DNA of 64,000 nucleotides, from NCBI GenBank assembly GCA_051313645.2, contig JBNRSN020000008.1, forward strand, positions 94,240,001 to 94,304,000, in the 5' to 3' direction. Source of the DNA: Centroscyllium fabricii (lineage: Eukaryota). The notes beneath the pieces were generated by a model. The model was given only the letters and a program-made list of their open reading frames with translations, was not told the origin of the DNA and did not search any database. A program made the position numbers and the translations under genes. Below, one piece after another: positions 12,932 to 64,000 of the stretch (the stretch's first letter is position 1; each line of letters begins with the position of its first letter).

Positions 12932-14212
12932 CAGGGCGCGACAAAACCGCTTGCCCGGGGCAAGTAAAATGCGGCGCTGGGCAAGTAAATGAAAATCTTA
13001 CTTGCTCGACCGGGCAAGTGACTGAGGCCATGGGAACGGGTGGGTGGATCCCGGCCTGGAGGTGGGTGCGGATTGGCCGGTGGGGCCGGGCGGCGCGGCA
13101 GGGATTGGAGGTGGTGGCGTGTCAATCGGGAGGGGCAGCAACCAAGTTAGGTGGAGCGGGCTGGTAGAATGCGGCAACAGTGGGTCGGTGCTGTCGACCT
13201 GCTGAGGGGGGAGAGAAAAAACCGGAACGGCTGCTGGACGAAGGTAGGCGGGGAGAGAGAGTGAGGGAGCCAGCGGCCTGCGGAGGCTTCACAGAAAGTT
13301 TGGTAAATGAGGGAAGAATGTTCAGAGTAGAGAGAGAGACCCAACACAATTATTACTAAACAAAGAGAAAAATATTTGACATACTGGACAGAAACGACAA
13401 AAACCCAAAACAAACTAGATTGTTATTTGGCCCTAAACAGACCGTACACCATGGCTAATTACCTGACCATGGTGAAAGATAGCAAACTGAGAAAAACCCT
13501 GACAATGTACAGACTTAGTGAGCACAGACTAGCCATCGAAAAAGGCAGACACATACAGACTTGGCTGCCCAGAGAGGAAAGGCTGTGCTCCCACTGCAGT
13601 CAGGGAGTGGTGGAGAGAGCTGCATTTCCTCACAACTTGTGAAAACTATCAGGGCATAAGGGGGAATTTCTACCCCAAATTCGTAAAAACATGCCCTGAA
13701 TTCAAAAATTTGAACGACCACCAAAAACTCCCATATCTATTGGGGGAAACAGAGGGACTGTATAAAATTAGCGGCAAACTACGTCATAGCTTGCCATAAG
13801 CAGAGGGACAACCAGTGACCACTGAAGCTAAGAAGAGTATATGAGATTTATATGTGGGTATATATGTATATGTTTGCATAGTTATCCATTCACTGTATGT
13901 CTAGTTCTGCATTTGTATGTTCAATAGATATGTCCTTTTTCTGTGCTTTGGCAACATAAGATGTATCTTGTCATGCCAATAAAGCAATTTGAACTGAATT
14001 GAATTGACCCTGGCAGAGAGGGGTAGAAACTGGGCCAATGCAACTAAAGGCACAATCACAATCTATGGCTTTAGATTGAAGCATTTTAATAAAAATGTAA
14101 AATCTTTATTTCTTTAAAAATTTCAGGCAAGTGAAATTTGTGTTTGGGCAAGTGTTTTAGAAATCCACTTGCCCGATTGGGCAAGTGAAATTTTTTTTTT
14201 TGTAGCACCCTG
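12932..14212. mobile_element. Non-autonomous DNA transposon (possibly P superfamily) with a nested LINE fragment
   Basis: TIR CAGGGCGCGACAAAA / TTTTGTAGCACCCTG, flanks gcgtgtc / gtgtgtc, and subterminal GGGCAAGT repeats at both ends. Confidence 0.7.
13343..14008 (+). mobile_element. Non-LTR retrotransposon 3' end (RTEX-like, tentative) nested in the MITE
   Basis: ORF 13376..13642 encodes KTLTMYRLSEHRLAIEKGRH...RLCSHC with a frameshifted HFL..C zinc knuckle. The 3' UTR ends catgccAATAAAgc followed by a (ttgaa)n tail. Confidence 0.7.
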
Positions 14213-30431: not shown

Positions 30432-31271
30432 CTGAATGTTTACCATTTTGATTATCTAATAGTTACTTCTAGGAGATAAAAAACCTGGAGAAAGCTGTGA
30501 AGCAACAGTAATGATCTCTTTTACAACCCCCTCTACCTCACGTGATGCGTACTAGATTCCGTAAAAAAGAGTATATGGTTTAGAATAAGAGGACTCTTGG
30601 TTTGTGAATAAAATGTTTACATTTTCAAGCTCTTAAATAGGGCTGAGTTTCCATTTAACTCGCAAGTACATTGCATAATTGCAGTTTTGCATGACTATAT
30701 CCATATGGTGGCATTCTTTGGTACTTACACTGTCCATTTTGTGAATGCTTATCACAAAGCAATTTCTTACGAGTTAGCTAAATGCTGACTTTTACAAATT
30801 TAAATCAGAGCATATTTGATATCAAATTGTTCCTCATGAAAACCAATGAGCAGTTTACAATGCATATATCTGATTAAGGAATACAACTTTTCTTGGGGGG
30901 GGGGGGGGGGGGAGGGGAGAAAGAGACTGCGAAAGGAGGAATGCAATGGGCTACATAAAGGTAAATTATTCCTCGCATCCACACAACCCTTACAACGGAG
31001 CTCAGCAAACTGGAAAGAAACCCCCCAAAACACTTCAGTAACAAAACAGGTTTGTACATCAAAAATTTTAAATCCACTCTCGGCTACAGTCTTTAATTCT
31101 AGCTACCAACAGTCATTTTAGTTCATCAGTAAATCAATTATGTTTGCTCACACTTCCTATTAACCACATATTCAACAGCTGGCTCCCAAATAATTCAGTT
31201 TAAAATGGGTTTCTTCAGTAGCACGGTCTTTCTCTTGATAATCGAGAAATAAAATGTCAAAAAAATATTAC

Positions 31272-31463
31272 CTGAGCCCGTGCGAAACACTGCAGTTTGA
31301 GTGCCATGAAGCAGCTCCACGCCTGCATGACTGGGACTGCGATAAACTGGGCTTTGAAGTGTTCTTCCTTCATAGATTGGAGTAATATGCAAATCAGGAG
31401 ACATGGTAGAACGCAATTCATGTCCCAGTTGACTGTGTTGACTGGCATATGAACTACGTAATC
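31272..31463 (-). CDS. PKP4: Plakophilin-4 coding exon D (about human exon 8)
   Basis: Boundaries tttcag|GA and TCAG|gtaata; 192 nt, phase 1-1. Encodes LRSSYASQHSQLGHELRSTMSPDLHITPIYEGRT...RTGS. Confidence 0.94.
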
Positions 31464-31769
31464 CTGAAAAACAACAGAAGCCATGGTTGATTGAATCAAA
31501 TCAGATTTCTACTGGGTATAAACAGATGTTTAAAAACAAAGGTGTTCTGTTCCTCACACTGATCAGTATTTTTACCCAATGTAACCAAGTACAGTAAATA
31601 AAATGCACCTAAATTACTGCCTAATAGTTCAGTTTCTTATTTCATGTTACTTTAAATATCCTTATTTTGTTTGCTGTAAGGTGTGCTGGTGCAAGCTGGT
31701 CTATGGAATAAATGCAGTGCATTTTATCCTCAAGAACTACTGATCATGAATCTCAGGGGGGCGGGGGGG

Positions 31770-38689: not shown

Positions 38690-39050
38690 TGTCCTCAAGG
38701 CATTAGTTTGCTTGCTGGAGTCCAGTTCCATGCCCAATTGGCCATTATTCATACCGTGGCAGTGAGCGACAGGAGGTGATTCATTCGTGGAGTAATCACA
38801 GCCAAGCCCAATTCTGTCCTTGCCTGACAAGGCAAATGCACTTCCAACTGAGGTCACTGATAACAATTGAAAGGCAGAGGTTCTCTCCACGCCCACACCC
38901 CAATCCACTGCACCCCATTTCTGAGTACATAGCGGGCAATTATAATGTATCTACTGCTGCCCTGTTTAAAATAAAACTCAGCTAATTCAACACAAACCAG
39001 AGACTAAACCTGGGATTGTTCTGGTCTGTAATGCTCAACTACTCATTGGA
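38690..39050 (-). mobile_element. Old unclassified SINE-like repeat (related fragments at about 18760-18870 on + and 11820-12070 on -)
   Basis: Shared head resembling acagaccag...cccaggttt...ctggt.tgtg.tga.ttagctga. Confidence 0.45.
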
Positions 39051-39366
39051 GAAACTCACTTTAGAACTGGGGGGAGATGCATAATTTTTTTTTCTAAAAG
39101 TAAAATTCTGAACCTGTCCCACCTCCTTCAATAGTCATTATGAGTGGTGCCCAGATCAGGATGCCACCGTAGCTACCTTTCCATGAATGAAATTGAAATA
39201 GAGGGTCTTCATCTAGCCTTGGTTCCCAATATAACCTGCTGCTCCTTGTGCTTAGCGGACCGTGGAGTCGTGATGAGGACAGCAGCCTTATCCGAGGTAA
39301 CCACTATTGTGTTTTTCTTTAAATGCGAACTTTTTAAAACCTTGGGCTGTCTTTTCAGATGAGCAA

Positions 39367-39760
39367 CATAGAAACATAGAAGATAGGAGCAGGATTAGGC
39401 CATTCGGCCCCTCGAGCCCGCTCCGCCATTCAATGAGATCATGGCTGATCATCCAAACCCAGCACCCCGCCCCTGCCTTGTCCCCATATTCCTCTCGAGC
39501 CTGTACCGACACATATCCCACCCTATCCCCGTAACCCCACATATTCAATCCCCCTAACACTAAGGGTCAATTTATCATGGCCAATCAAACTAACCCGCAC
39601 ATCTTTGGACTGTGGGAGGAAACTGGAGCACCCGGAGGAAACCCACGCAGACACGGGGAGAATGTGCAAACTCCACACAGATAGTACCCGAGGCTGGATT
39701 TGAACCCGGGTCTCTAGTGCTGTAAGGCAACAGTGCTAACCACTATGCCACCGTGCCACC
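39367..39760 (-). mobile_element. HE1 SINE body fused to a CR1 3' UTR tail
   Basis: HE1 head and V-domain at about 39495-39760, followed by about 130 bp matching the CR1 3' UTR at 3519-3640. Confidence 0.85.
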
Positions 39761-40353
39761 CGTGAGTACTGGAACATAATATTGTAGGGTCTTAACCTGC
39801 AGTATTCCTTTGGCACAACCAAAGCTATTCCGTGAACAAATGTTTTTAAGGTTTGAATTAATGTGATGCAGATCAATTCAGCTGGATAGCCTTAGAAGTT
39901 AAAGAAGGGCAATCAAATCAACTGCAAAATCATGGCTAGAATCAGACTCCAGTTTGACAGCAACATGTGGCCATGTCCTCACAGATTTTGGCATTTGCAA
40001 AACTAAACCGGGAAAACAAAGGTTAGAATTTAAATAGGCAGCAGGTGTGAAATTTATCAAGAGGGAATGTGCAACACACTGACTGAAAACACTCCCCTCG
40101 GGATGGCGTGTTACCTTGTTCTTCCACGAGTGTCACACCTGTACCACATGGGGTTTGGCAAGTTATGATTTGATTAAACCTTTCCATGAGTTAAATATGC
40201 CTCGTAACACAATGTTGCTCCTTTGAATATTCCATTTCTTTTAAAGGCTGTTATTTAGACAATTTAGAATTATTTTAGAATATAATGTGCATGAAGTAAG
40301 CAACAGCACCCTGCATTTATAAATGCAAGAAGTCACACAACACCAGATTATAG

Positions 40354-42058
40354 AACATAGAACATACAGCACTGTACAGGCCCTTGGGCCCTCAATGTAG
40401 TGCCGCGCTTAGTCCGTCTCTGATTTTTCCTGTCCCCCCTACTCTTCCTTCCCCTCCATGTACCTATCTATCATCCTTTTAAAAGCACCCAGACTGTCCA
40501 CATCCACTATTTCAGATGGTAGCCTATTCCATTCCCCGACCACTCTCTGCGTAAAGAACTTGCCCCTGCCATCCCTTCTGAATCTTCCTCCTTGAATCTT
40601 GTGCTCGTGTCCTCTTGTTGTCGTTCTTCCCACCCGGGGAAACAGTCTCTGCACGTTTACTCTATCGATCCCCTTCATCATTTTAAACATCTCTATTAAG
40701 TCCCCCCTCTTCCTTCTCCGTTCCAGGGAGAAGAGTCCCAGCTCCCTCAACCTCTCCTCGTACGACTTTCCCCCCATTCCCGGCAGCATCCTGCTGAATC
40801 TCCTCTGCACCCTCTCCAGCGCCTCCACATCTCTCCTGTAGTACGGTGCCCAGAACTGCACACAGTACTCCAAGTGTGGTCTCACCAGTGACCTGTACAG
40901 CTGTAGCATGACCTCCCGGTTCTTAAACTCTATTCCCCTGTTGATGAAGGCCAATACACCATAGGCCTTTTTTACTGCCTTGTCCACCTGGGTGGCAGCC
41001 TTCAATGATCTGTGTACATATACTCCCAGATCCCTTTGCTCCTCTGCTTCACTCAGGACCCTGCCGTTGACCCTATATTCCCTCTTCCTATTTGCCCTAC
41101 CGAAGTGCATCACCTCGCATTTCCCCGTGTTGAACTCCATTTGCCATTCTTCAGCCCAGCTCTGCATCCTATCTATATCCCTCTGAATCTTTCTACTTCC
41201 TTCCTCCTCATCCACTACTCCCCCAATCTTTGTGTCATCTGCAAATTTGCTGACCCACCCCTCAGTCCCCTCCTCCAAGTCATTGATAAAGATTACAAAT
41301 AGTAGTGGCCCCAACACCGACCCCTGTGGTACCCCACTGGTGACCGGTCTCCAGCCCGAGTATTGGCCCTCTAGCACTACCCTCTGCTTCCTCTGAGCCA
41401 GCAAGTTCTCAATCCATCCCACCACTTCGTTGTTTACCCCGCAACTCCTTACTTTCTTCATGAGTCGACTGTGCGGGACCTTGTCGAACGCCTTGCTGAA
41501 GTCCATATATATGACATCAACCGCCTTTCCCTCGTCCACACACTTGGTCACCTCTTCAAAGAATTCTATCAGGTTGGTCAGGCACGATTTGCCCTTAACG
41601 AATCCGTGCTGACTGCTCCTGATTAATTTGCCCCTTTCTAGATGGTCGTAGATCCTGTCCCTCAGGACCCTTTCCATCACCTTTCCGACTACCGAGGTAA
41701 GGCTGACTGGTCTGTAGTTCCCTGGCACGTCCCTGCTCCCCTTTTTAAATATGGGAACCACATTCGCCTCTCTCCAGTCCTCAGGGACTATCCCCGAGGA
41801 TAGCGAGGAACTAAAGATAGAGGTCAGTGGCTCTGCGATTTCGTTCCTCGCTTCCCAGAGAATCCTTGGATATATCCCGTCCGGCCCAGGAGATTTGTCT
41901 ACCTTCAGTTTCTCCAAAATATCTAATACCTCCCCCCTCTGAATATTTACTTCCCCCATCCTTTCCCCTTGTATCTTGAACTCCTCCTCTACTTTTAGTT
42001 CCCTCTCCCTTGTGAACACGGACGCAAAATATTCATTTAGTGCTTCCCCAATTTCCTC
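40354..42058 (-). mobile_element. Young 5'-truncated CR1 LINE with an uninterrupted ORF2 RT portion
   Basis: ORF 40439..42019 (526 aa, no stops) with KSPGPDGI, NYRPVSLTS, YMDFSKAFDKVPH, GVPQGSVLGP and KFADD. TSD tatag and (ttctatg)n tail. Confidence 0.95.
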
Positions 42059-42083
42059 TATAGTCCAACAGTTTTATTTTGAA

Positions 42084-42121
42084 TCACAAGCTTTCGGAGC
42101 TTTTGCCCCTTCGTCAGGTGA
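42084..42121 (-). ncRNA. Putative minimal hammerhead ribozyme (Penelope type)
   Basis: The minus strand reads UCAC-CUGACGA-A-GGGGC-AAAA-GCUCC-GAAA-GC-UU-GUGA. It has the conserved core, helix I (UCAC/GUGA), helix II, and a palindromic AAGCUU in place of helix III. Confidence 0.65.
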
Positions 42122-44045
42122 AAGACGAAGGGGCAGAAGCTCCGAAAGCTTGTGATTTAAAATAAAACTGTTGGACTATAACCTGGTGTTGTGTGACTTC
42201 TTGCATTTGTCCACCCCAGTCCAACACCGGCACCTCCACATCATGGCTGCATTTATAAACACTCTACTATTTATTCGAAGTTTCTTAATTAGAATCACTG
42301 GATAATTCAATTTTTTAAAAACACAAAACAAGTTTGGATTAATGGGAGTAGCACATTTAATGTAAATGTCTACATGTTTCCCCTCATGACATCACCCACA
42401 CACATGGGGGGGGGGGGGGGGCGAGGTTCACTTCCATGTGTATGCCTTGGATACTCAGTTCTACTTCCCATGACCACACAGCCATTTCTGTGCTGTTAGA
42501 CATTTGAATAGTTGAAAAACTAACTGTTTTAATTAGAACAGAGAAGATTAAGGGGTGATTTGATAGAGGTGTTTAAAATTATGAAGGGATGTGACATGGT
42601 TGATAGGAGGCTTCACATGTCCTGGACAATGATGTGTGTAGAAGTGCCTCTAATTGCTCAAACTCAAGGTTTGAGCTTGAGAAGCGGCTGGAGTCACTGC
42701 AGGGCATACGGGACGCTGAGAATTTCCTGGCCCACACATTCCAGGAGGCGGTCACCCCACAGCTCCAGAGGGTTCAGGAGAACAGTATTTGGATGACCAT
42801 CTGGCAGAGTAAAAGGAGGCAGGCAGTGCAGGAATCCTCCGGATGTTTGGCATTCTCACATGACAACACCTTGGGGGGAGTGCAGTCTAGAGCACATCCA
42901 CGGCACTGTGGGCAAATGACTGCGCAGGGGGCACAGCAAAGTGTAAAAATGCAGTGGTCATAGGGGATTAATTAGTCTGGGGGGGATAGAACATTTTGGG
43001 AGGCGGGGGGGGTTGGAAAAGAGAAAGAAAATGGGAACAGCCAGAAGTCATGGTCTGTATGGGAACCAAAGAAACTGGAAGGAAATTGGTTGAGGTCCTG
43101 CAGTCAGAGTTTCAGGAGTTGGGGAGGAAGTTAAAAAGCAGCACCTCAAACTGAAGTAATGCAACGCACTAGTGAGAATAGAAATAGGAGAAAAACAGGT
43201 TAAAGAACAACTGGGAAAATAGCTTCAGATTCCTGGAGCTTTGCGACTAGTTCGGTGGGTGGGTTGCACCTCAACAGAACTGGGACCCATGTTCTCGCGG
43301 GAAGGTTAACTAGTACAGTGGGGGAGGGTTTAGACTAATTTCGCAGGGGGGTGGGCACCAGGATGAAATGTTAGAGAGAAGAAACAAGGCGCAGAGAAGA
43401 CTGGGAGAGGGAACTAGCACTAGCGTAAAGAACAGTTCAGAAACAGGAGGGATGAGTCGGGGGGAAAATGCGAAGCAGTCCAAGTTGGGTTTGGAGTGCA
43501 TGTACATAAATGCATGGAGTGTCGTAAATAAGGTTGGTGAGCTGCAGACACAAGTCGTCACCTGGGACAATGATACAGTGGCAATAACAGACCTAGCTCA
43601 AAAAAGGGGAGGACTTGGAGCATAATATTTCTGGCTACAAGTTATTCAGGAAAGATAGGGAAGGATAAAAAAGGACTGGGGGGGGGGGGGGGGGGGTGGG
43701 CAGCATTGATCAAAGAAACTATTCTCGCATTGAAGCAGCATGATGTGGTTGAGGGGCCAAAGACAGAGTCTATTTGGTTAGAATTAACAATAAGAGGAGC
43801 GGTTACACTACTGGGTGTACACTATAAGCCACCGAATAGTCAAAAGGAGGTAGAAGAGCAAATGTGCAGGCAAATGACAGAAAAATACAAGAATTAGAGT
43901 AGAGATAATGGGGGACTTCAAGTGTCCTAATATAGACTGGGATAGTAACAGTGTAAAGGGCAAACAGACAGGAATTCCTGAAATGTGTACAAGATAACTT
44001 TCTTGATCAGTCAGTGTGTTCCTAGCCAGACGAGGAAGGAAGCAG

Positions 44046-48496: not shown

Positions 48497-48847
48497 TAAC
48501 TGTATTTCAGTGAGCTGCAATTTATAATGTTTATCGGAATGTTGATAATTTAACGGGAAAGCCAGCATAAATACAGCAAATTTAATATTTTTCTCTCTGT
48601 TGGGACTATTTTTAATTGACTGAATACTGTAGCATATAAATGCAAGCAGTAGCATATTCCCTTAACTTTAGTACAGTTTGTTCACCTTTGCAGGAAATAC
48701 TAGGCAGTTTCGGAGATGTTAACTACAGAAAGAAAATTAAATGCTAGAAGAGAGGTACTTCAGATTACATATCATTTACCCACCAAAATAAACCTTTGCC
48801 TGAAAAGTGTTGTACTTTGGATCTGTGTTTATTGTCACAAAACAGAC

Positions 48848-49418
48848 CTGCAAGGCTGTCTGGTCGTGGTGGAACCATCCTCTCATAGATTTCTGGTGAC
48901 TGGAGACAATAAAAATCAGTATCAATGGCATGGGATCTTTGTAGTGGTGCTGCCATATGTTGAGGGACGGCAGTCATAGTGGACCGTGCAGGAGATGATG
49001 ATCCGGTTTGAGCTTGGGGTGGAGAGTTTACTCTTGTTTGTGCAGTTGCTAAAGTGAGAGGTGAACCCACTCTCAACGAAGAGCCCAAAGTCTGGTATGG
49101 AGAGGTGGCTCTGCTGGAATTAGTAGGTTGTCTTGTAACTGAACCAATTCGTCGAATTGTAGCTGGTGATGTCGATCTCTGTGTGGTATGTGGAGAACCT
49201 GCTCGCTGAGCTGGCAATGTTGAAGACAAGTAAACTGTAGAATTATTGGACCGAGGTTCAGTTAATGCTGGTGAGCCGTAAGCACTCCCCAGAGATGTTC
49301 TCAGTGATCCCCTTGATGGTGACATTCCAGTACCGTAAGCTGGCGATTGTGTTCTAGATGGAACTGAACTAACTCTTCTCATTGCCCTATTGGTTGTAGC
49401 AGCAACATGCATTGGACC
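48848..49418 (-). CDS. PKP4: Plakophilin-4 coding exon C (about human exon 7), Ser/Pro-rich head
   Basis: Boundaries aaacag|GGT and GCAG|gtctgt; 571 nt, phase 0-1. Encodes NRAMRRVSSVPSR...IRRIGSVT...IYERMVPPRPDSLA. Confidence 0.93.
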
Positions 49419-51206
49419 CTGTTTAAAAAAAGAGGTAACGCCAAATGAATTAATGGTGTTCTAAAAAGACAAAGATGATAGCATACACATTACACCTGGT
49501 CTAAGAGACACTTAGGCTTTACAAAAAAAAAACCTCCTTTATTACAATCCTCACCCTCCCTATCTGTTTGCACTCAGATAGTGGAATGGTACCTGTGGAC
49601 AAATTTGTATACACCATCAATCCTACTCTGCTCAAACTTGTCTCCAATCAAGCAGAGTAATGCAGGCTTCTTCCCAGTTAGTTTCCCCCATTACATTCCA
49701 GACAACTAGTCAAGATTGGCAGCTCAGCTTCATGGGGAAAAGTCGTCTAGAGGGTTTCTACATTTAGTTAGTAAATTTGAAATTGGGCAATAGATACACA
49801 GTTCAGGAAGGCTTGTGTAACAATTTTATATTGGACATAGCATTTCACAGGAATCTGTTACAGCTTTCTCAAAACAACTGCAGCAAGTCAAACAAGAAAA
49901 ATGTGGATCACAGGGTCAGCTGCTGCAATTAGAAACATTAAAAGCAAAATAAACGTTGAAAAATGCTTCAGATATATGAATTTAATAAACAGAAGAACAG
50001 TGCAGCATGTGGGAGCAGTGCCAAGGAGTGACGAGGTGCAGGTTCAACTCCGAACTCTGCTAAATTCCCAATCTCATCTGCATTGCTGTAGGGAGACACC
50101 TACTGGAGATGAGGCACCTCATCACAGGATGGGAAAGACAGGAAAATTAGGTTGCTCTTCCTAACAGGTTTACAGCCTGGAAGCAGGCCTGCCCTCACTC
50201 GGAGACAGAGACTGAAAGTTAAGGGTCAAAAAAATACTTGTAAATATCATCCAAACACAGTGATGTCAAGCTTATAATCTGCTCTTACAGTAGAAATCCT
50301 CAATTTTGCTCTTGCATTTCATAAGATTTGTGTGACATTGTAGTAAATTAGATATTAGTATTTCTAAACATACCTTAGTATAAAATTACATCTGTATTAA
50401 ATCAGCATTCAGCTGTGATTACGCTCCATGACACAATTTCCAAAGTTCTGCAATAACTTTTGATTAGAACTTTGCCAATTCTGTTCAATTGGAAACAGAA
50501 TGACCATTTCATACAGGATTCACTATTACTTTTGCATCTCATCACAAAACAAGTAACATTAGTTGTAAATATTAAGCTTTAGTAAACAATTTCAAGAACT
50601 TTATAGAACCCAAACGTACATGGGCTTTCCAGGACACGCCCACGGTCACACTGGGTGGGAGTATGGCAGAATGCCTGTGAATTAGGCTGGAACATGGATA
50701 TGCTGGGTTTTGGCCTTGGCTGTCACTTTGTGGGAATTTGTTTGGAGCGGTCTGCTCCAAACATGGCCTCCTACATCAGAGGTAGAGTGGTAGGTGAAGG
50801 GACTCCATGGCCAGGAGTTTACTCAGCCCTAGCTTGGTATGTGCCAGGTGGGTGTTGTGCCCAGTAAGAAAAGACATACTGCCCTGTGGGCTGGCAGAAG
50901 CAAAGTTTAGTGGTGGACATGTTCCAATATTCACCCCTTGCTATGACAGGTGCCCAAATATGTGCCCATAGTGGAGTAGGCACCTACCAGAAACACTTAA
51001 AACATGGATTTTCCCTCTGATTACATATTCCAGCAAGGAAAATGGTAGAGGTTACTGGTGAACAGATCCCAGCGCATATGCCAGAATCAACGGCTTATGA
51101 ATGGTCAAGCCCGTACAGTTTAAAATACCAGCATGGAAGAGATTAAGGGGACCTTTTTGAAAAAAATCTTAACTTAAGCCATCAGTTTCCCTAAAACATA
51201 TAGTAC

Positions 51207-62368: not shown

Positions 62369-64000
62369 CTATGTGAGCCGTTGGGGTGGCCGGATAATGC
62401 GGCCGGACCGTGTTGCATGTTGCTTCTGGTTCTGAGGTGGAGTGTGGGCGGGTTTTGTTGCGGGAGGGCGACCGCGTTGTGGTGGTTGTGCGGGGACAGT
62501 CGTCTCGCCCGCTATAACGTGTGCCGGCTTGAGCCGGTCTATTGTCACAGTTTCAGTCCTGTTGCCCATTTGCAGTTCGAAAGCTTTAGCTCCCGCCCGA
62601 AGCACTCTGTAGGGGCCATCGTATGGTGGCTGCAGTGGAGATCGGTGTCCGTCGCGCCGGACGAACACGAATTTTGCGTTTTTGATGCCGTCCGGCGCCC
62701 GAGCTGCCGGCTCTCCGTGCCGGGCCACTGGTAGTGGCTGGAAAGCTCGTGCCGGGTTGGCGATGTCCTTTAAATACTGGTCGGCTGACCAGGGAGCGTT
62801 GGGTTCGGCTAGGAACTCGCCCGGCACTGTTAAGGCTTGGCCGTAGACGAGTTCTGCTGCCGAGGCGTTGAGGTCTTCCTTGACTGCCGAGCGCAGCCCG
62901 AGGAGAACCCATGGGAGGCGGTCGGTCCACGACGCGTCCTTGAGGGTGGCTCGTAGTGATGCCTTCATTGAGTGGTGGAACCGTTCGCATAGCCCGTTCG
63001 CTTGTGGGTGGTATGCGGTGGTTCGATGTAGTGTTACCCCGAGGTCGCGGGCGATGGCCGCCCATAATGCTGACGTGAACTGGGGTCCTCTGTCGGAGGT
63101 GATGTCGGTGGGCACGCCGAAGCGGGTGACCCAGGTGGCGATGAACGCCCTGGCCAAGTCTGTGGTGCCGGTGGCGGTGAGGGGGACTGCTTCTGGCCAG
63201 CGAGTGTTGCGGTCGACCATGGTCATTACGTGCATGTGGCCCCGGGATGGCGGTAGTGGCCCGACGAGATCAATGTGGACGTGGTCAAAGCGTCTGGCCG
63301 GCACTTTAAAAGTTTCCAGCGGTGCCCTGATGTGCTTATGCACTTTGGAGCGCTGGCAGGCAATGCAGGAGCTGGCCCAGGCGCGTACGTGCCATACGAA
63401 CCGGGCAGAGATAAGTTTGATGGACGCGCGGGTGCCGGGGTGGGACAGGTCATGGAGGGTCCTGAATATGTGTCGCCTCCAAGCGTGGGGGACGACGGGC
63501 CTGGGCTGCGGCAGGGATACGTCGCAGCAGACGACGGTGGCAGCGGGGCCGTGCACGATATTGGCCAAGTGGAGGCCCGAGAGATTTGCTGCTGAGTTGA
63601 GCAGGTCTGGGTCGGCCAGCTGGTCTGCGGCCAGCTGGGCGTAATCGACCGCCATTTGGGCGGCGTTAATGGTGGGGCGTGAGAGGCAGTCAGCGACCAC
63701 GTTGTCGTGGCCGGAAATATGTTGGATGTCGGTCGTAAATTCCGACACGGCCGCGAGCTGGCGCTGCTGCCTGGCCGACCAGGGTTTGGCGACCTTAGCC
63801 ATCGCAAACGTGAGTGGCTTATGGTCGACGAAGGCTGTGAAGTGGCGGCCCTCCACGAGGAAGTGAAAATGTCGCACTGCCAGATGGAGAGCGAGGAGCT
63901 CCCTATCGAAGGCGCTGTACTTAACCTCTGGGGGCCGGAGTTGCCGGCTGAAAAAGGCATGGGGCTGCCACGAGTTGCCGGTCCACTGCTCAAATACGGC
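62369..64000 (-). CDS. Ty3/Gypsy Pol, C-terminal part (RNase H and integrase); open to the window edge
   Basis: The frame is open from 64000 (AFFSRQL...YSAFDRELLA, DHKPL). It includes the integrase HHCC (HDLSHPG...CIAC), DDE (HIDLVG, TSDRG, NGLCERF) and GPY/F (YDGPYRV) motifs. Confidence 0.95.
   Translation of the reverse strand, partial: AVFEQWTGNSWQPHAFFSRQLRPPEVKYSAFDRELLALHLAVRHFHFLVEGRHFTAFVDHKPLTFAMAKVAKPWSARQQRQLAAVSEFTTDIQHISGHDNVVADCLSRPTINAAQMAVDYAQLAADQLADPDLLNSAANLSGLHLANIVHGPAATVVCCDVSLPQPRPVVPHAWRRHIFRTLHDLSHPGTRASIKLISARFVWHVRAWASSCIACQRSKVHKHIRAPLETFKVPARRFDHVHIDLVGPLPPSRGHMHVMTMVDRNTRWPEAVPLTATGTTDLARAFIATWVTRFGVPTDITSDRGPQFTSALWAAIARDLGVTLHRTTAYHPQANGLCERFHHSMKASLRATLKDASWTDRLPWVLLGLRSAVKEDLNASAAELVYGQALTVPGEFLAEPNAPWSADQYLKDIANPARAFQPLPVARHGEPAARAPDGIKNAKFVFVRRDGHRSPLQPPYDGPYRVLRAGAKAFELQMGNRTETVTIDRLKPAHVIAGETTVPAQPPQRGRPPATKPAHTPPQNQKQHATRSGRIIRPPQRLT

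Follow-up and report, generated by a model that had tools for sequence, protein, structure and literature searches.

A window of 64,000 nt from contig JBNRSN020000008.1 of Centroscyllium fabricii contains in an intron of the plakophilin-4 gene (PKP4) two short inverted sequences with a complete hammerhead ribozyme motif. The locus raises the question of how such a hairpin arises, either as a small element that multiplies as a unit or anew at each insertion, and of whether hammerheads of this kind cut their own RNA in vivo. PKP4 lies on the minus strand; Pfam and PDB searches left its exons unidentified and a homologue search, with best matches in sharks, identified them, placing the element in a 17-kb intron between the two exons of Table 1.

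Without a nested LINE, 213 bp remain between the two copies of a 13-bp direct repeat, CTGCATTTATAAA, which represents the target-site duplication (TSD). The inverted arms pair over 57 nt with 96% identity (42059-42115 with 42124-42180) and over 33 nt with 97% identity (40321-40353 with 42176-42208), and with the nested insert removed there are 3 differences over 82 aligned positions. An element of about 215 bp with a 13-bp TSD, inverted arms and a nested CR1, as described by the first-pass annotation, is therefore confirmed by measurement, as is its statement that the CU of CUGA is lost in the plus arm, which begins at GACGA. Its description as a palindromic mini-element holds for the inverted arms but not for the element as a whole, which is asymmetric: only the plus arm has a tail, about 38 bp long, that stops at the parent ORF's start codon. 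The hairpin has a predicted folding energy of -93 kcal/mol and a z of -21 versus 200 shuffles and, with reversed-pattern controls giving 0 matches genome-wide, it cannot be attributed to chance.

Table 1. Positions, in the window, of the inverted element, the nested LINE and the neighboring PKP4 exons.
Feature	Positions	Strand	Remark
PKP4 exon downstream of host intron	31264..31470	-	aa 362-432 of shark homologue
Left TSD, 13 bp	40311..40323	+	last 3 bases also match the element; edge ambiguous
Tail-less pLTR arm, distal 3' end	40324..40353	-	of the two 3' end sites in this family, uses the first
Nested 5'-truncated CR1-type LINE	40354..42058	-	short-repeat 3' tail
Tail-less pLTR arm, proximal part	42059..42123	-	5'-longer arm; contains the whole hammerhead
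Minimal type I hammerhead	42084..42121	-	predicted cut between 42088 and 42087
Inversion junction	42116..42125	+	8-nt loop; 2-nt GA microhomology at 42124-42125
Tailed pLTR arm	42124..42246	+	5'-truncated inside the CUGA box; tail ~42209-42246
ATG	42243..42245	+	parent ORF start codon in full-length copies (L129, L134)
Right TSD, 13 bp	42247..42259	+	shares its first 2 bases with the ORF start
PKP4 exon upstream of host intron	48843..49421	-	aa 176-365 of shark homologue

The nested LINE, which is probably a CR1, duplicated 5 bp of target (TATAG, 40349-40353 and 42059-42063) and contains an open reverse transcriptase (RT) frame of 544 aa (40439-42073; RVT_1 match, E 5e-37). As this frame of 544 codons is uninterrupted through to its stop, the LINE is judged to be young. 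It is only 64-72% alike to the larger other CR1-type pieces in the window. Elsewhere in the window, frames at 62586-63644 are like the integrase region of LTR retrotransposons and resemble pieces flanking loci L033 and L038, and a 103-aa frame at 13331-13642 resembles the C-terminal end of another LINE RT protein.

On the minus strand, which is that of the PKP4 pre-mRNA, the sequence from 42121 to 42084 reads as had been claimed for a complete minimal hammerhead: a 4-bp stem I, CUGACGA, a bulged A, a 5-bp stem II, GAAA, a palindromic AGCU and U17, so that the core, stems I and II and the palindromic helix III of the minimal hammerheads of Penelope-like elements (PLEs) are all present, and an AATAAA at 42078-42073 follows in the same arm. 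Published PLE hammerheads likewise possess CUGANGA and GAAA boxes, a bulged base before stem II, a G-C closing pair, a short stem I and a palindromic helix III (PMC4209133); the main text of that report does not mention sharks or map 5' ends at the cut site, and U at the cleavage position is a feature of the present motif. The search with hammerhead models that the first-pass annotation had suggested came back empty, as an Rfam scan of 39000-44000 gave no hammerhead match at E <= 10 and only hairpin-driven miRNA models under their thresholds. When folded by itself in silico, the hammerhead forms stems I and II with probabilities of 0.87-1.0; with the opposing arm present, the predicted stem probabilities are < 0.0001, and in a minus-strand transcript of 42060-42130, which includes 7 nt of that arm, stem I has a probability of 0.002. 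Co-folding of two cores gave -21.5 kcal/mol for a swapped dimer versus -24 kcal/mol for two monomers, which says little on catalysis. Across 259 motif sites recurring variants lie in loop 2 or at N7, or preserve base pairs, A-U replacing G-U in stem II and G-U replacing A-U in stem I, but as the descriptor demanded core and stems and many loci were picked by motif, this is a biased test of conservation.

Copies reaching further upstream run into an ORF; for one piece of it, the 7.2-Gb genome offers 38,321 candidate places. The ORFs next to the pLTR of the element encode up to 865 aa and match RVT_1 above cut-off; a C-terminal GIY-YIG endonuclease was read by eye (YIGET motif, two cysteines before it), and a Pfam search of the ORF gave no GIY-YIG match at E <= 0.001. 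This adjoining ORF, with its RVT_1 match and GIY-YIG motif, upholds the Penelope origin proposed earlier. The parent family is an EN+ PLE, with RT and C-terminal GIY-YIG in a single ORF between pLTRs, and its copies show the 5' truncation, adjacent inverted copy, one-sided tail of 30-40 bp and TSD of such elements. Its clade is probably Neptune-type, judging from the linker motif and the vertebrate host: copies L129-L135 contain CHSNLCKTC and ADKGG, equivalent to the Neptune Zn-finger-like linker and DKG motif, and a CX2-5CxxC linker before GIY-YIG marks Neptune or Nematis (PMC8557442). Each arm is the 3' end of a pLTR, consisting of the hammerhead, AATAAA and then one of two end sites that in this family lie about 38 bp apart. 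These match the two RT start sites bounding the tail in the anole element PAc (Poseidon, Anolis), in which the hammerhead is also near the ORF start; PAc belongs to the Poseidon clade and has its ATG inside the ribozyme (PMC11167929), whereas the ATG of the present family follows the ribozyme at a distance of about 120 nt and the encoded protein includes a Zn-finger-like linker. The element is thus made of two 5'-truncated pLTRs, head to head, of an abundant protein-coding PLE that appears to be Neptune-type. This layout of an inverted 5'-truncated pLTR, a one-sided tail and a TSD is already known from published PLE insertions (PMC3846280, PMC8557442), and the PKP4-intron copy is a further example. 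Insertions of EN+ PLEs such as Adineta Pen2a similarly show head-to-head pLTRs with a tail on one arm running into the ORF start (PMC3846280; scheme in PMC8557442), a short TSD and heavy 5' truncation (PMC3846280); unlike in Pen2a, both copies here are about 90-125 bp long and lack an ORF, the host is of shark type and the copy number is very high. Hammerhead pairs on opposite strands 100-700 bp apart, and solo motifs linked to truncated PLEs, have also been described (PMC4209133).

The genome-wide count of copies proposed by the first-pass annotation found one 40-nt variant of the hammerhead 11,912 times without mismatch, together with 1,176 tight hairpins (spacer <= 12 nt). Among the first 100 of the 11,912 matches listed there are 12 head-to-head pairs, with gaps of 3, 4, 7, 13, 100, 140, 219, 381, 393, 1092, 1182 and 1404 bp, and by-eye counting of 68 insertions sampled by hammerhead motif found an inverted pLTR nearby in 41; 5' ends at -120 in this sample are alignment limits against one master with differing subfamily 3' UTRs and were not used as truncation points. 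The first 50 of the 1,176 tight hairpins listed contain about 23 different spacers, AGGT occurring in 9 and the junction of the PKP4-intron copy in 3, in three subfamilies (haplotypes). In these 50 hairpins an overlap of 1-3 nt is seen at most junctions, the tail is confined to one arm in 48, the TSD measures 12-14 bp in 36, and the 5'-longer arm is tailed in 25 and tail-less in 20, the arms being equal in 5. At 1,009 further junctions one arm is cut inside or below the ribozyme. Two loci deserve separate mention. At L023 a hairpin of the same family sits inside the hammerhead of an older related element, with the CUGA box duplicated as TSD, and L029 and L030 (G000:C1311) are one insertion with identical flanks found 600 kb apart on opposite strands, representing either a segmental duplication or an assembly duplicate.

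The locus had been interpreted as a non-autonomous, retrozyme-like hairpin that silences itself in introns; on this view Penelope proteins would insert a transcript of the whole hairpin at new sites. A hairpin query with 2,074 candidate places, 40 of 40 scored being near full length, one arm/junction combination common to 8 of 30 close copies, the predicted locking of the ribozyme by the hairpin and the finding that in rotifers pLTRs suffice for mobilization in trans (PMC3846280) would all fit such a unit. However, the 30 close copies show 17 arm/junction combinations, of which that of the PKP4-intron copy is unique, junctions form a continuum in which hairpins grade into inversions > 1 kb and full ORF copies, and they lie in either orientation with respect to the tail and are spread over several subfamilies, one and the same junction being found in different subfamilies. 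Non-LTR retrozymes resemble the present element in being small, non-coding and PLE-derived with a type I hammerhead, but their units, each with one ribozyme, are repeated in tandem head to tail (bioRxiv 10.64898/2026.07.22.740005), whereas here the tandem units that define them are absent and a single inverted pair has one intact motif and no sign of unit replication. Replication as a hairpin unit is accordingly very improbable. A hairpin family with a fixed junction and arm differences inherited from a master copy was likewise rejected, given the heterogeneous junctions in several subfamilies. The varied junctions and the unique combination of the PKP4-intron copy indicate that hairpins likely form anew at each insertion; occasional re-mobilization of a hairpin is possible and compatible with the recurrent junctions (8/30 and AGGT in 9/50). 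Nine or more 50-bp units derived from the pLTR 3' end, without the ribozyme, form a tandem satellite at G000:C420:25957-26405 (L247-L255).

From these data it is highly probable that the head-to-head pLTR pair was assembled at insertion into the PKP4 intron and was later split by the CR1-type LINE. In the proposed mechanism the element endonuclease would cut the two strands of the target at points about 12 bp from each other. Each free end would then prime reverse transcription, one at each start site, giving a tailed and a tail-less arm, and both cDNAs would stop early and be joined via the 2-nt microhomology. PAc cuts and extends both strands in vitro and has two RT start sites (PMC11167929). 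The PKP4-intron copy spans the cut site on both arms and would have been made from RNA uncut at the ribozyme, its hammerhead being inherited pLTR sequence; in PAc, too, uncut RNA is the main template (PMC11167929).

In order to compare the two arms, 47 of the 50 hairpins were used (3 were dropped for short arms), and discordance at subfamily sites was found in 12 of 275 comparisons (4.4%), versus a background of 37/2,458 (1.5%; p = 0.003) and 46% for random pairing; without a CpG-prone site the excess has p = 0.05. As the arms mostly share subfamily alleles, both would mostly have been copied from one RNA or from sister repeats, and the two arms usually seem not to derive from unrelated RNAs. 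Agreement at 96% of the subfamily sites, private variants common to both arms in L075, L106 and L117 and the near symmetry of several long hairpins are also what fold-back self-priming might produce, in which a truncated cDNA folds at a microhomology and copies itself into the second arm, as proposed in PMC3846280. A self-primed copy, however, cannot gain a tail that is absent from its template, which would make the tailed arm the 5'-longer one in every case, whereas the tailed arm is shorter in 20 of 45 asymmetric cases and in the PKP4-intron copy, whose arms moreover carry different family alleles at two diagnostic sites. Self-priming is therefore considered unlikely, and priming from both target strands is retained. 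At pLTR position 58 (loci L061-L128 and L001-L030), arms that differ carry C when tailed and T when tail-less in 4 of 4 cases of the unbiased set, and the PKP4-intron copy shows the same pattern; a single tandem source element may have supplied one arm from its 5' pLTR and the other from its 3' pLTR.

To address cleavage, 5' ends were counted as copies starting at a given base after four non-template bases, at five positions with -1 left out. There were 127 5'-truncated copies at -4, 149 at -2, 398 at the predicted cut site, 263 at +1 (about 13 of 100 listed in this class look like 2-base deletions) and 188 at +3, corresponding to an excess at the cut site of 1.5-3.1-fold raw and 1.5-2.8-fold after composition correction. 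After correction, cut-site copies number about 1,200, a minority versus the > 11,912 spanning the site. Thirty cut-site loci were fetched, 2 duplicates were dropped and 22 of the remaining 28 have an adjacent inverted arm. In 13 of these 22 the partner arm also ends within -2 to +5, versus 4 of 25 upstream controls (p = 0.003), and it passes the cut site in 3/22 versus 12/25 (p = 0.015); symmetric junctions are common at any position. Untemplated filler was not significantly commoner at cut-site junctions (13/22 versus 11/25 controls, p = 0.39) and microhomology was not significantly rarer than in controls (p = 0.25). Among 36 direct tandem joins (about 21 loci), 4 loci have an A-rich linker that begins 15 nt past AATAAA, and in all 4 the sequence resumes precisely at the cut site; two of these loci share a contig and could be duplicates. 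Two further loci with little or no linker also restart at the cut site, and the rest mostly follow microhomologies.

These counts suggest that the ribozyme cleaves a minority of family transcripts in vivo. The cut-site peak might instead mark the start of transcription, reflect RT stalling on the folded ribozyme or arise from the base composition of the counting pattern, a possibility for which there is some room, as only five positions were counted, with -1 left out, and the raw peak is modest at the fold values given above; furthermore, the first 100 listed of the 1,009 short junctions, inspected by eye, show only a slight excess, with 6 junctions at the site, of which 3 use a 4-nt microhomology, and RNA-seq of the anole element, as presented in PMC11167929, lacks ends at the cut site. 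Yet the peak coincides with the predicted site to the single nucleotide, pausing of the RT at stem I would presumably place the ends 3-4 nt downstream, microhomology is present in only 2 of the 22 cut-site junctions, and both the stopping of partner arms and the exact restart of the A-linked tandem joins argue for cleavage. An origin of the peak other than cleavage is thus conceivable but somewhat doubtful, and we give an even chance to the broader proposal that a minimal hammerhead cuts its own RNA in the germ line, that the genome records it and that, together with one-sided tails on the longer or the shorter arm, this reflects a Penelope RT that makes two copies of a single RNA, starting from each target nick and each start site. 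In contrast to PAc, where the study found cut-site RNA ends absent (PMC11167929), genomic 5' ends of the shark family peak there. A literature search, mainly of freely available main texts, gave no prior account of genomic 5' ends at this cut site or of PLE priming from two ends. L325 (G000:C224:21304912-21305070) is an otherwise normal pLTR with four extra 38-bp tandem units inside. Each unit begins at the predicted cut site, extends 15 nt beyond AATAAA and closes with an A-rich linker, and the array could stem from repeated jumping between templates, from a small circle or from expansion at a later time.

In the PKP4 pre-mRNA the arm opposing the hammerhead is transcribed first, and the ribozyme is predicted to be locked by the hairpin and the element to be inert passenger DNA. 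Self-silencing had been offered as the reason why an intron tolerates the ribozyme; the predicted block stands, but it is unnecessary as an explanation, because single minimal hammerheads were inactive in vitro (PMC4209133) and that of PAc needs the element protein, being in addition dispensable for insertion in vitro (PMC11167929). The predicted locking is a by-product of the hairpin.

The PKP4-intron locus, one of thousands of stumps, is of little import by itself. The family, young and with tens of thousands of copies, is a natural experiment in which the counting of junctions addresses both cleavage and hairpin origin. PMC4209133, PMC8557442 and PMC11167929, as far as these accounts go, leave two questions standing, namely whether minimal Penelope hammerheads ever cleave in vivo and what gives rise to the inverted pLTR and the one-sided tail. 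The first counts favor cleavage that affects a minority of transcripts, with priming on both strands of the target. If this is true, germ-line cleavage would be recorded by genomic 5' ends, by both arms stopping at the cut site and by rare tandem joins leading from a cut 5' end into poly(A)-like ends 15 nt past AATAAA.
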